This document shows, in pieces, positions 49,577 through 55,266 of a stretch of 64,000 nt of DNA. Source of the DNA: a virus; IMG/VR virus record IMGVR_UViG_3300045988_079296, positions 34,613-98,612 of that record. One strand, given 5' to 3'. The notes under the pieces were generated by a model, which was not told the DNA's origin, ran no database searches, and saw only the letters and a list, made by a program, of their open reading frames with translations. The translations under genes were made by a program, and so were the position numbers. Position 1 is the first letter of the stretch. Each line of letters opens with the position of its first letter.

Positions 49577-49885
49577 TTATTCTTTTTCTTGTTCTTCTTT
49601 TTCCTCTTCTTCAAGAATGTGTAACCCGATAACGGCATAACCGATAATGTCCTTTAGAGTGTCTTGGATGCTCTCAAAATTCGGCTCTTCTCCCTTTAAT
49701 CGGTTTTCCACCATGTTTCTTAACCTTGATGTTTTGTCCCAAATATGAACCATGTTGCCGTTCATACCCAAATCAAAACTCGCTCCTTTGTAGTCTTTGT
49801 TTTTCTTTAACAAGATTTCAGTCATGCCATCAAAGATGCCATTGATACTTTCTCTCGTCATTTCTTCACCTTTCTTCTTACTCAT
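49577..49885 (-). CDS. DUF1599-like all-alpha protein (nucleotide-modification-associated family)
   Basis: KKNKDYKGASFDLGMNGNMVHIWDKTSRLRNMV matches the K..DYG...G....i.DK..R pattern I recall for DUF1599. Confidence 0.45.
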   Translation of the reverse strand: MSKKKGEEMTRESINGIFDGMTEILLKKNKDYKGASFDLGMNGNMVHIWDKTSRLRNMVENRLKGEEPNFESIQDTLKDIIGYAVIGLHILEEEEKEEQEKE

Positions 49886-50519
49886 CGTTAAATAAGTTTT
49901 TTAAATTATACAATTCGGTTATGTTAATCTCCACATCGGGGAAATTTATTTTCAAACTGTTTATAACAGCATCAACCGCTTTCGGGAAATTTTGTTTTGC
50001 TCTCTCCCATTGTTCATCCAATCCTCTATTACCCAATGAACGTTCTCTTTTCATATAGAAGTAAAGAGCCATCCAATCGCATAGTTTAGCGAACTTCTTT
50101 TCAGGCTCTGGGCAAGCGCAAACCATAGATAACATCATATTTGATGCATCGGTATCTGTTCCGTGTTCGTCTGTTTCCTTGAACTCCCTTAACGCTATAT
50201 GCTTTGATAGATTGTCAAGAACTCTTCTGACTTCCTCTCCGTTGTAGTCGTTATACTTAGTTTCATGGGACATATCCCGAAGTATCAATGCTTCATCCCA
50301 ATCGTGGAAGATAGCTCTTGAAACTACATCCAACTTAAACAATAATACCTTCGGGTCAATACTATGACCAAATACATCCTCCAATAAAACTCTTGCGAAT
50401 ACCGCATCTTTATAAGAGTGTTGACTCACGCTTTCTTCCTTGAAAACGTCCATTTCCTGCCACTGCTTAATATTATCAAGTCTGTGCAGATACTTACTTT
50501 TGATAATCTTGTTTAACAT
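49878..50519 (-). CDS. HD-domain phosphohydrolase (YfbR-like 5'-deoxynucleotidase-like)
   Basis: SVSQHSYKDAVFARVLL (His) and AIFHDWDEALILRDMSHETK (HD...E...D) fit the HD superfamily metal site. Preceded by the conserved leader motif. Confidence 0.6.
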   Translation of the reverse strand: MLNKIIKSKYLHRLDNIKQWQEMDVFKEESVSQHSYKDAVFARVLLEDVFGHSIDPKVLLFKLDVVSRAIFHDWDEALILRDMSHETKYNDYNGEEVRRVLDNLSKHIALREFKETDEHGTDTDASNMMLSMVCACPEPEKKFAKLCDWMALYFYMKRERSLGNRGLDEQWERAKQNFPKAVDAVINSLKINFPDVEINITELYNLKNLFNDE

Positions 50520-50521
50520 TT

Positions 50522-53500: not shown

Positions 53501-54070
53501 TTTATCTTTTGAATAGTCCTTCGCTACCGTTATTGTTTCACCGATAACGGACTTCACGCCATACTTATCGCAGAAGGTCTGAAAGGATAACGCTCCAGCC
53601 AACGTATTTCGGTCACATATCCCCAACGCCTTAACTCCAACAAACTTTGCTTTCTTTGCCCATGTATCGCAACCTCCCGAACCATTCAATATTTCATATT
53701 CGGTATGTACACCAAGATGTGCAAAGTCCATTATGTACTCTTCGCTAATTTTACCAAGATACTTGAAGTCCAAGAATTGTGGCTTGAAGATAATTTCGTT
53801 GTATCGGTTTTTATCCTTCTTTATTCCCGAATAATAGAACTTGCTTCCAAATTCAAAGAGGATGTATTTGACTTTCCCCTCGTCCAGCATATCAAATTCT
53901 TCATCTGAAAGGATAAACCCAAAGTCCTCGTCAATTATTTTACCATCAAAAGGATGAAGATACAAAAAGTCTCCAACCTCTTCGATAGAGATAATATCAG
54001 AGCCGTCCAACGTTGACTCTGATATTACCATGTGATTATCTTCTATCCACTTTTGTAGATTTTCCGTCAT
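50531..54070 (-). CDS. dnaE: DNA polymerase III alpha subunit (DnaE-type, PHP domain)
   Basis: 1179 aa. PHP motifs [13 protein letters not shown] and [11 protein letters not shown]; palm [60 protein letters not shown]. Confidence 0.95.
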   Translation of the reverse strand: [1179 protein letters not shown]

Positions 54071-55266
54071 AGCTTACCAAGATATTTATGCTTCATTGGT
54101 TTACTTAACCTTGCTGCAAAGAAGTTCTTTGCTAATATCGACATATCCCAACCGTCCGCACCTTCGGCTTCCAACAACTCAATCTCGGCAATAGCGGTCT
54201 TTCTTATCGCATCCTTTTCAAGAGCCGTTTTTGCAAGCGTCATTTTCTGCTTGTAGAGCACGTATATCTTCAAGAGCTGATAAACGTTATAAAAGTAAGT
54301 TGAAAACTCTTGTAGCTGCTTAATTTCATCTTGTACGTCAGTCTCTCCGTTCTTTACCCTCATAAGGTTTTCGATAACGATATTCAAGTGAGCATCTACC
54401 TCTCTGAGACGGTTGACCGCTACTTCGTGAGAGAACGCAAAGTCCATCGGTCTTGCTTCGGCTTCGGTTGCCTCATAGAGCGAATGACCCATGCCTTGTT
54501 GTTGGTATATCTCGTCCATCTTTTGAGCCGTACCATTCCAATCATAAATATGTAAGCTCTGGGAGTTGTGAGTTTGCGTTCCTAACTCAATACCTAAACA
54601 ACGGCACATTATCTCGGTAAGGAAGGAGAATTGGAATATGTTCGTAGGCAATCCCCAATGAAGGTCGTTACTTCGGTTTGCGATAGTAGTTATCAATTTG
54701 CCCTTCCGAACTTTCAACTTTATGAGGTCATTGCACGGTATATCCTTACTTTTTGCCCCAAGGTCAAAACTTGGATTCCAAATCGCCATTACAACTTGTC
54801 TGGTATTCATATTCTCGGATAACAAACGAACCGCATCTGCTACTTGGTCATATCCTTGAGCTGCCGTTACTCCGTTCTCATATTTATCCTCCGTCCGAAT
54901 ACCCCAGTGGCGAAGTCTGAACCCGTAAGGAGCGTGGAATGTTTTGCCATCATCAGAAAAGTCTTTCATTCGTGCGTTGAAGATTTCCAAAAATTCCAAA
55001 TCTTTTCTTCCTACGGCTATCCACATAGCTTCGGCAAGAAGGAAGAAGATGTTTATATCTCTTCCATAACCGCCAACACACCTCGCAATGGGATTGGTGA
55101 TAATAGTTTTGATGTCTAATAATTCTTTAGCATCCCCAGCACGGCTCTCTTCGCTTTCTTGGTTGTTCAAGATGTAGTTATTAATCACTGGATAGAGTGC
55201 TCCAAATTCCTCCACTTTTGCTACTCCGTAGTCAGGCAGGAAACAATTTGTCTTTGGTAGTCCCAT
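54067..55266 (-). CDS. divergent thymidylate-synthase-fold enzyme (dUMP hydroxymethylase candidate) with about 130-aa C-terminal extension
   Basis: ThyA-fold blocks YGFRLRHWG, YDQVADAVRLL, RQVVMAIWNPSFDL...DIPCNDL (catalytic Cys), NRSNDLHWGLPTNIFQFSFL, SLHIY. Asn in PTN suggests uracil rather than cytosine specificity. ATGA overlap with dnaE. Confidence 0.75.
   Translation of the reverse strand: MGLPKTNCFLPDYGVAKVEEFGALYPVINNYILNNQESEESRAGDAKELLDIKTIITNPIARCVGGYGRDINIFFLLAEAMWIAVGRKDLEFLEIFNARMKDFSDDGKTFHAPYGFRLRHWGIRTEDKYENGVTAAQGYDQVADAVRLLSENMNTRQVVMAIWNPSFDLGAKSKDIPCNDLIKLKVRKGKLITTIANRSNDLHWGLPTNIFQFSFLTEIMCRCLGIELGTQTHNSQSLHIYDWNGTAQKMDEIYQQQGMGHSLYEATEAEARPMDFAFSHEVAVNRLREVDAHLNIVIENLMRVKNGETDVQDEIKQLQEFSTYFYNVYQLLKIYVLYKQKMTLAKTALEKDAIRKTAIAEIELLEAEGADGWDMSILAKNFFAARLSKPMKHKYLGKL

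Follow-up and report, generated by a model that had tools for sequence, protein, structure and literature searches.

The window analysed here is a 64,000-nucleotide stretch of the IMG/VR virus record IMGVR_UViG_3300045988_079296, and it forms part of a phage genome of approximately 99.6 kb. Four adjacent genes within this window (49577–55266) are likely to constitute the pre-replicative core of a pathway that replaces thymine, in which a dUMP hydroxymethylase (HMase) of the ThyA superfamily supplies 5-hydroxymethyldeoxyuridine monophosphate (5-hmdUMP) and is encoded together with a DnaE polymerase, an HD phosphohydrolase and a DUF1599 protein in an uncultured ~100-kb phage probably of gut Bacteroidales. 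The block is composed of four open reading frames (ORFs), each of which scores above the Pfam gathering threshold with concordant PHROGs matches:

54067–55266, minus strand: ThyA-like ORF, predicted dUMP hydroxymethylase, 399 aa (PF00303, 5.5e-24; phrog_5131, 5.7e-70)
50531–54070, minus strand: DnaE-type (family C) DNA polymerase alpha subunit with a PHP domain, 1179 aa (Pfam PHP, DNA_pol3_alpha, finger and HHH_6; phrog_405, 2e-207)
49878–50519, minus strand: YfbR-like HD-domain phosphohydrolase of the 5'-deoxynucleotidase type, 213 aa (PF12917, 2.5e-13; phrog_7076, 6.6e-11)
49577–49885, minus strand: DUF1599/NMAD1 small all-alpha protein, 102 aa (PF07659, 3.1e-6; phrog_1485, 5e-19)

All substantial ORFs of the window are on the minus strand. 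An earlier note on this DNA, made from the sequence alone, had described these four ORFs, an ATGA overlap between the ThyA-like stop and the dnaE start, and a YfbR-like HD gene and a DUF1599 gene directly after dnaE; the ORFs, their order and their junctions are all present as described. The ATGA lies within CTATGACG, the spacer between dnaE and the HD gene is 11 nt, and the HD stop and DUF1599 start overlap by 8 nt (ATGAGTAA). The next ORF begins after a gap of 2 nt, and an intergenic region of 132 nt is found upstream of the block, which reads as one translationally coupled operon. The arrangement is not a chance one, as the gene order is kept in relatives with 41–69% protein identity.

The product of ORF 54067–55266 is assigned by sequence and structure comparison to the dUMP-hydroxymethylase clade of the ThyA superfamily, of which SPO1 gp29 is the type. 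The tblastn search against phage genomes ranked the classical phages containing 5-hydroxymethyluracil (hmU) first, with matches of 1e-39 to 1e-45 to SPO1 gp29 and to the enzymes of SP8, SP82G, SP-10 and Goe9/10, those of SP-10 and Goe9/10 being labelled "dUMP hydroxymethylase" and "deoxyuridylate hydroxymethyltransferase" respectively. M6-like and ViI-like phages, which carry hypermodified thymine (T), formed the second rank (1e-20 to 1e-29), and T4-type td synthases formed the third (~1e-8, core only). The relatives of the protein are nevertheless labelled "thymidylate synthase" in databases, including most GenBank records, and a divergent but genuine thymidylate synthase (TS) producing dTMP, with the HD and DUF1599 proteins acting in general nucleotide salvage, has to be weighed as an alternative. 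This is judged very improbable, since none of the seven NCBIfam TS equivalogs comes near its cut-off (the best scores being 76 bits against 174.55, 68.5 against 327 and 55.4 against 108.35). When profiles were set against each other, with training sets that left out the query's own family and an HMase set restricted to known or annotated dUMP-HMases, the dUMP-HMase model scored 227.8 bits over residues 25–343 versus 74.8 bits over residues 71–244 for the TS model.

The PF00303 match spans only residues 75–247, and the ThyA-fold core comprises approximately residues 20–260. The earlier note had reported all the ThyA-fold blocks, the catalytic Cys in DIPCN and an Asn in GLPTN, and each of these is present in the sequence. 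The key residues are Glu79, Tyr114, Arg156 (in an RQ pair), Cys178 (PCN), Arg198/Ser199/Asp201, Asn209 and His239/Tyr241, none of which varies among the 36 HMases aligned. A genuine TS would also have these catalytic residues of the core (Cys, Glu, Tyr, Arg, Asn and His/Tyr), as it would the ThyA fold itself. Outside these residues, an alignment that combines the query, 14 labelled reference sequences and a fragment of MilA separates the two groups at four places (E. coli numbering). The true synthases have TIWDEW in the W80/W83 region, SRR at R126-R127, PCH at C146-H147 and QRSCDVFLG in the Q165-D169 region, whereas the dUMP-HMases and the query have FSDDG, TRQ, PCN and NRSNDLHWG, the last being identical between the query and SPO1 gp29. 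The single Arg in place of the usual RR pair, which had been taken as a sign that the enzyme is very divergent, is thus real (TRQ for SRR), but it is ordinary for the clade, as RQ is common to SPO1 gp29, SP-10 and the ViI-like enzymes.

Asn209 aligns with N177 of E. coli ThyA and with the Asn of the SPO1, SP-10, M6-like and ViI-like enzymes, and this base-specificity position is occupied by Asp in T4 gp42 and MilA. The earlier prediction from this Asn of dUMP rather than dCMP as the substrate therefore agrees with its invariance in the dUMP-HMases. The same residue speaks against the reading in which the enzyme acts on a cytosine nucleotide, in the manner of the T4 gp42 dCMP hydroxymethylase, the XP-12 dCMP methylase or the CMP-type MilA, and the phage modifies C. 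We give this reading almost no credence: the T4 gp42 profile does not detect the ThyA-like ORF, and the Xanthomonas phage homologue falls outside the dUMP-HMase clade in the tree. What it can claim is that MilA is the best structural match to the protein, shares its C-terminal domain, and nearly equals ThyA in score in the PDB sequence search.

The split-based neighbour-joining tree (500 bootstraps, capped distance corrections) recovers the query family as monophyletic (100%) and places it as sister to SPO1/SP-10 in 54–73% of bootstraps. It is never placed with the TS proteins in any bootstrap, the one grouping that had been set in advance against an hmU-type enzyme. The hidden Markov model and phylogenetic comparisons against reference enzymes that the earlier note had proposed thus both favor the dUMP-HMases. 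Together with the tblastn ranking, the NCBIfam scores and Asn209, they support its proposal of a ThyA homologue of the hmU type in a block that manipulates the nucleotide pool.

The AlphaFold2 model of the ThyA-like protein is of high confidence (predicted local distance difference test, pLDDT, 88.7; predicted template modelling score, pTM, 0.91). The C-terminal extension of approximately 130 residues beyond the TS core is modelled as five helices (residues 283–384, pLDDT 95–98), which had been put forward earlier as a feature to model and had been called unexplained. The extension is real, and it now has counterparts in SPO1 gp29 (383 aa) and the SP-10 enzyme (382 aa), as well as in the CMP hydroxymethylase MilA (5jp9, 5b6d), the best PDB match, with a template modelling (TM) score of 0.82 on the target and 364 aligned columns. 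All top matches have the TS fold, and the PDB thymidylate synthases give approximately 270–290 aligned columns with the model. An extra five-helix C-terminal domain is described in the MilA crystal-structure paper, and the extension of the query, a trait of the clade, matches it. According to the T4 dCH paper, the C-terminal tail of TS closes the active site for hydride transfer and hydroxymethylases are without this tail. The ThyA-like protein lacks both the W80/W83 motif and the sealing tail of TS, and the five-helix domain occurs in the tail's place. These absences further disfavor a genuine TS, as do the lack of any dihydrofolate reductase (DHFR) in the surveyed stretches of the genome and the co-occurrence of a hypermodification-cluster protein (PF18723) described below. 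The physical coupling to the polymerase had likewise been called unexplained; the position is an ordinary one, as the HMase gene is found just upstream of the polymerase gene in SPO1 (genes 29 to 31) and also in SP-10.

The HD protein scores 50.6 bits to PF12917 (cut-off 25.9), and its second assignment, phrog_7076, carries the label "dATP triphosphohydrolase". The metal and catalytic layout H...HDxxE...D...D is present as QHS...FHDWDE...RD...CD, and these motifs align with those of the HD proteins encoded after the HMases of M6, CN2, P26218 and MW202557. PDB sequence matches are weak and include YfbR (E = 0.2), OxsA and AF1432. The HD gene lies directly 3' of the HMase gene in Pseudomonas phage M6 (gp58/gp59), Bordetella phage CN2, Rhodoferax phage P26218 and the podovirus MW202557; M6 gp59 is YfbR-like at 1.1e-8, and the CN2 protein is annotated as a "5'-deoxynucleotidase". 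The neighborhoods of 80 HMase loci from IMG/VR were surveyed, and the lineage carrying DnaE (46 informative contigs) was compared with 22 distant loci. The order HMase-DnaE-HD is found in 43 of the 46 contigs, and an HD gene adjoins the HMase gene in 15 of the 22 distant loci. The HMase and the HD protein are a recurrent pair. In six of the 22, SPO1 itself included, a DUF1599 gene is present downstream in place of the HD gene, so that the HMase is accompanied by one or the other in 21 loci and by neither in one. This near-universal pairing is a new element of the analysis.

The DUF1599 protein matches PF07659 with 27.9 bits (cut-off 25) and has 3,944 relatives at E ≤ 1e-3. Its signature, K-N-x-D-Y-G ... 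D-K-x-x-R ... E-x-x-x-D-T-x-x-D-x-x-G-Y, is conserved, with invariant residues in 30 homologues, and AlphaFold2 predicts three long helices with a one-turn helix between the first two (pLDDT 84). Among 32 long relatives, 27 contain DUF1599 only, one also contains Nuc_deoxyrib_tr and one contains DUF4406, so that fusions gave no useful hint of function. A MazG-like NTP pyrophosphatase was considered as a candidate and rejected, as the Foldseek matches were weak and non-significant, the PDB profile search returned nothing and hhalign gave a probability of 0.2% against four phage MazG-like proteins. The DUF1599 model of Pfam misses SPO1 gp30, SP10_189 and FMYAK-P1 gp58. A broader profile built from 79 family members, against which 0 of 1000 shuffled controls score, finds the domain in each of these, and the signature residues align between the DUF1599 protein and all four reference-phage proteins:

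SPO1 gene 30, annotated "DNA replication" (locus L011, 7830–8510): profile match 3.2e-8, between HMase gene 29 and polymerase gene 31
SP-10 BS_SP10_189, annotated "DNA replication" (locus L012, 3575–4024): profile match 2.7e-9, directly after the HMase gene
YungSlug hypothetical protein of 198 aa: profile match 3.7e-12, two genes after the HMase gene
Xanthomonas phage FMYAK-P1 gp58, C-terminus (locus L017, 533–1306): profile match 6.3e-10, directly upstream of the ThyA homologue

By these profile matches, the DUF1599 protein and the C-terminal domains of SPO1 gp30 and its SP-10 counterpart are homologous, which is also a new element. SPO1 gene 30 is presumably required genetically for replication, as the annotation of the record indicates. 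In FMYAK-P1 gp58 the domain is fused to an N-terminal half that is a PRA-PH (MazG-clan) pyrophosphohydrolase (9e-15), and the neighbors of this gene are the ThyA homologue, a dCMP deaminase and a DHFR. DUF1599 is thus a conserved partner of ThyA-family modification enzymes.

Within the DnaE lineage, a DUF1599 gene follows the HD gene in 20 of 43 contigs. No DUF1599 was detected after HD in the other 23, and all of these except L041 encode a helical ORF of 88–138 aa in the slot directly after the HD gene (IMG/VR L037, L047–L066 and L069–L083). The short and long forms of these slot proteins are homologous to each other (hhalign 96.7%). That they are diverged DUF1599 proteins was rejected on an hhalign probability of 0.1%. 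Matches to DUF3310 were obtained for three of the eight slot proteins tested (1e-4 to 5e-4, below the Pfam gathering score), and T7 gp1.7, labelled "nucleotide kinase" in GenBank, is a DUF3310 protein (4.5e-23). A further new element is that DUF1599 appears, on these matches, to have been replaced by a DUF3310-like protein in sister lineages. Since the protein that takes the place of DUF1599 by position resembles the T7 gp1.7 family, this suggests by analogy that the slot encodes a small nucleotide kinase.

This raises a variant of the same pathway in which DUF1599 would be a P-loop-less kinase for modified deoxynucleoside monophosphates (dNMPs), converting hmdUMP to hmdUDP at the polymerase as an analogue of T7 gp1.7. 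An essential hmdUMP kinase would explain the "DNA replication" label of the SPO1 and SP-10 proteins, and the replication module contains no conventional dNMP kinase that could be recognised; the fusion to a pyrophosphohydrolase beside a ThyA homologue in FMYAK-P1 fits as well. The variant is nonetheless considered doubtful. No homology between DUF1599 and the DUF3310-like proteins is detectable (hhalign <1%), the kinase activity of gp1.7 is that of its GenBank annotation and may not reside in the DUF3310 region, and the same position does not mean the same function. Our best guess gives DUF1599 an accessory role in nucleotide handling, at either the hydrolase or the kinase step. A bolder form of the proposal, with both DUF1599 (including the C-terminal domain of SPO1 gene 30) and its DUF3310-like replacements as P-loop-less modified-dNMP kinases and, in addition, a toolkit that makes a thymidine derivative by undescribed chemistry, is regarded as similarly improbable.

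Outside the block, four further genes of the window bear on the pathway:

16441–16896, minus strand: dUTPase (PF00692, 1.1e-25; NCBIfam dUTP diphosphatase equivalog, 167.9 bits against a cut-off of 103)
9335–10438, minus strand: M6-gp55/SP10-gp186C-like protein, 367 aa (PF18723 "HMUDK_hel", 3.4e-50)
36668–36979, minus strand: remnant (residues 57–158) of an AAA_33/polynucleotide-kinase-like P-loop kinase, found by tblastn of the intact kinase of contig L009
352–1308, minus strand: radical S-adenosylmethionine (SAM) enzyme with a SPASM domain, in the structural-gene module (PF04055, 9.5e-16; PF13186, 9.3e-12)

The PF18723 protein aligns to residues 304–560 of SP10 gp186, the non-kinase half, to a 352-aa protein of YungSlug, to phiMAM1 gp083 and to M6 gp55; no alignment was obtained to M6 gp51, the proven transferase. 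Full-length homologues are found in 424 phage records belonging to T-hypermodifying groups (ViI-like, M6-like, CN2 and SP10-like). A 5-hmdU DNA kinase was rejected as its function: the protein is without a Walker A motif, its alignment to SP10 gp186 is confined to the non-kinase part, and the proven kinases form a different family, PF18748 (M6 gp54, 7.7e-18; SP10 gp186N). In Table 3 of Lee 2018, gp186C and gp55 are placed with the DNA-glycosylase-like aG/PT-PPlase proteins, and in Lee 2021 gp55 was dispensable for the reconstituted glycinylation step of M6. The gp55-like protein is therefore best described from its alignments as a conserved member of thymidine-hypermodification gene clusters that is not the kinase and whose activity is putative.

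The polynucleotide-kinase-like gene is intact in L009, a 99.9%-identical sister contig, where it encodes an AAA_33 protein (1.9e-17) and not a PF18748 protein. A megablast comparison showed that the window lacks 1,222 bp (L009 8198–9419) at a junction (36911–36922) with ~11 bp of microhomology. Three small ORFs are lost with this segment, as is the N-terminal part of the kinase that carries Walker A, and the gap is due either to a natural deletion in this variant or to faulty assembly. A 431-aa ORF (26962–28257, minus strand) has a Walker A motif, GYPGIGKT, near residue 190, but was rejected as a kinase candidate: it has no Pfam match and only phrog_4182 (unknown function), and resembles neither SP10 gp186N nor the small kinases beside HMases. 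The same region of L009 holds three genes (151, 208 and 73 aa), the reading frame being broken there. Among phages, relatives of the radical SAM protein are limited to BtrN-like proteins from Campylobacter phages and to one human-faecal contig; it is unlike M6 gp53, and its target could be DNA or a virion protein.

Taken together, the genes fit the following scheme. The dUTPase would supply dUMP to the hydroxymethylase and keep dUTP out of DNA. By analogy with known enzymes, the ThyA-like protein would add the methylene group of methylenetetrahydrofolate to C5 of dUMP, and water, not hydride, would resolve the exocyclic methylene to give 5-hmdUMP and tetrahydrofolate. No DHFR would be needed, because tetrahydrofolate is made by water resolution instead of hydride transfer. 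The 5-hmdUMP would be phosphorylated to the triphosphate, and the co-translated DnaE polymerase would insert hmdUTP opposite adenine. The HD phosphohydrolase would clear competing thymidine nucleotides. It could do so by 5'-nucleotidase action on dTMP or, with lower probability, by DatZ-like triphosphohydrolase action on dTTP. Such a step would parallel the dTMPase and dTTPase activities of the Bacillus hmU phages, which are part of the thymine-replacement pathway (PMC8989533). After replication, the gp55-like protein may modify hmU further.

Several observations weigh against this scheme or its individual steps. The deep nodes of the tree are moderately supported (54–75%), and hydroxymethylation rather than methylation is what we infer from clade membership and active-site features. 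The HD protein reaches only 37.2 bits with NF003009, the 5'-deoxynucleotidase equivalog (cut-off 122), and phmmer does not link it to the HD proteins beside HMases elsewhere, from which it has diverged too far. Its substrate specificity is not readable from the sequence and we infer dTMP or dTTP; a DatZ-like dNTP triphosphohydrolase activity would be equally compatible with the sequence, given phrog_7076. PDB searches and hhalign gave no significant structural or profile link between DUF1599 and any enzyme of known function. The survey of this genome by precomputed Pfam matches covered ~75 kb of the ~99.6 kb, and in the surveyed part neither a dNMP kinase for hmdUMP nor a dCMP deaminase was recognised. 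No PF18748 kinase was found either: precomputed Pfam gave none over the ~75 kb, and a five-kinase profile gave nothing in the window and a best match in the lineage of E = 0.023. The aGPT-Pplase2 transferase (M6 gp51, ViI gp247) was not found by Pfam in the surveyed regions. The hypermodification toolkit of this lineage therefore appears incomplete, which is new as well.

These gaps bear on whether 5-hmdU is the final base or only an intermediate, with a hypermodified thymidine made after replication by the gp55-like protein and other enzymes, possibly the radical SAM/SPASM enzyme and a non-canonical kinase. The PF18723 protein, otherwise found in the T-hypermodifying groups, points in this direction, as do the radical SAM gene and the sister genomes with an intact polynucleotide-kinase-like kinase. 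The missing PF18748 and aGPT-Pplase2 proteins point the other way, together with the dispensability of gp55 in the M6 step, the BtrN-like rather than gp53-like character of the radical SAM protein and the truncation of the kinase in this genome. Hypermodification is thus a possibility that we hold to be unlikely, although it is the strongest of the alternatives. With neither a 5-hmdU DNA kinase nor an amino-acid:DNA transferase to be detected, virion DNA may contain 5-hmdU itself or some uncharacterised derivative of it.

For the phage itself, a near-DNA search against 50,697 phage records gave no match for the window. The nearest relatives of the DnaE protein are from Bacteroidota phages (Chryseobacterium phage MA9V-3, Cellulophaga phages phiST and phi13:1, and Bacteroides DAC phages), and the large terminase is nearest to those of Bacteroides thetaiotaomicron phages DAC16-23 and SJC03 (38% identity). 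On the strength of these relationships, the host is probably a member of the gut Bacteroidales. At E ≤ 1e-3, 653 relatives of the ThyA-like protein were found, many of them on contigs of 95–103 kb. The nearest cultured DnaE relatives, MA9V-3 and phiST (L008), have the 7-deazaguanine genes queE, folE and queD near DnaE and no HMase there, and the MA9V-3 "thyA2" product (L007 17146–18270) clusters with the true synthases in the tree. Related replication modules therefore pair with different DNA-modification systems. Two further features were noticed in relatives (L002 14773–15417, L004 19371–20117 and several IMG/VR loci, among them L029, L040, L047 and L055). Many of the IMG/VR relatives have a dnaE of two ORFs, which points to mobile insertions or to a polymerase that is split, as it is in Cellulophaga phage phiST, and in some relatives a homing-endonuclease gene (NUMOD3, GIY-YIG) sits between dnaE and the HD gene or near recA.

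The block is flanked by two long, strongly acidic, low-complexity proteins (55399–56715 and 47676–49037, both minus strand) that have a near-identical motif of ~40 aa in common (DSMDRSELKTFIKENELEISVKKSWSDDDIREKIREAMG and DDMDRSELKKYIKEQGLEVSVKKSMSDDDLREAIREAMD). The 453-aa protein of this pair shows a weak Ish1 match and is weakly similar to single-stranded DNA-binding proteins. Upstream of the replication module and after baseplate-like genes is a protein of ~1,463 aa (63027–63998 of the window, minus strand, and beyond; L027 4979–9370) with a weak match to Mtd_N, the major tropism determinant of diversity-generating retroelements. A ferritin-like or rubrerythrin-like protein (15637–16257, minus strand; PF00210, 1.7e-7) adjoins the dUTPase and the large terminase.

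Thymine replacement of the SPO1 type is a known anti-restriction strategy, and the block most likely represents its occurrence in a new lineage, coupled to a family-C polymerase. No report of hmU in gut Bacteroides phages was found in the literature searched. If the proposed pathway is correct, thymine would be replaced by 5-hydroxymethyluracil or a derivative in a widespread lineage of ~100-kb phages, represented by hundreds of metagenomic contigs, whose nearest cultured relatives infect B. thetaiotaomicron. In the gut, the escape of these phages from restriction and from other defences that target DNA would be affected. Their recovery by sequencing library methods that are sensitive to base modification could be affected as well, and hmdUTP would be shown to be a usable substrate for a polymerase of family C (DnaE). 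Two proteins of unknown function, DUF1599 and the product of SPO1 gene 30, gain a concrete handle from their homology.

Among the known systems, T4 gp42 and the dNTP-synthesising complex of T4 resemble the block in having a ThyA-superfamily hydroxymethylase without the TS tail, encoded near the phage polymerase, that provides a modified dNTP to replication. The T4 enzyme differs in being cytosine-specific (Asp179), in having no C-terminal helical domain and in showing 17% identity to the query, which its profile misses. MilA, from mildiomycin biosynthesis, shares the ThyA core and the five-helix C-terminal domain, but its base-specificity residue is Asp and its preferred substrate is ribo-CMP, whereas the query has Asn and is encoded in a DNA-replication operon. 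In Pseudomonas phage M6 (gp51–gp59; Lee et al. 2018, 2021) the dUMP-HMase gp58 is likewise followed by a YfbR-like HD protein, gp59, and a PF18723 protein of the gp55 family is present. M6 also encodes the 5-hmdU DNA kinase gp54, the glycine:DNA transferase gp51, a pyridoxal phosphate-dependent decarboxylase and a radical-SAM isomerase, for which no counterpart is detectable here. The gp55-like gene of this phage is located 45 kb from the HMase gene, and the M6 region compared contains no DUF1599. The closest resemblance is to genes 29-30-31 of SPO1 and to SP-10. Their HMases belong to the same clade (36% identity in the trimmed alignment), have the same NRSNDLHWG, FSDDG, TRQ and PCN motifs and the C-terminal extension, and are encoded just upstream of the replicative polymerase in a block that includes a DUF1599-domain protein. 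The SPO1 polymerase is of family A and its DUF1599 domain is the C-terminal part of a 226-aa protein, whereas the polymerase here is of family C (DnaE) and DUF1599 is a stand-alone protein of 102 aa. The HD hydrolase, absent from the SPO1 block, is present here, and the host phylum differs, that of this phage probably being Bacteroidota.

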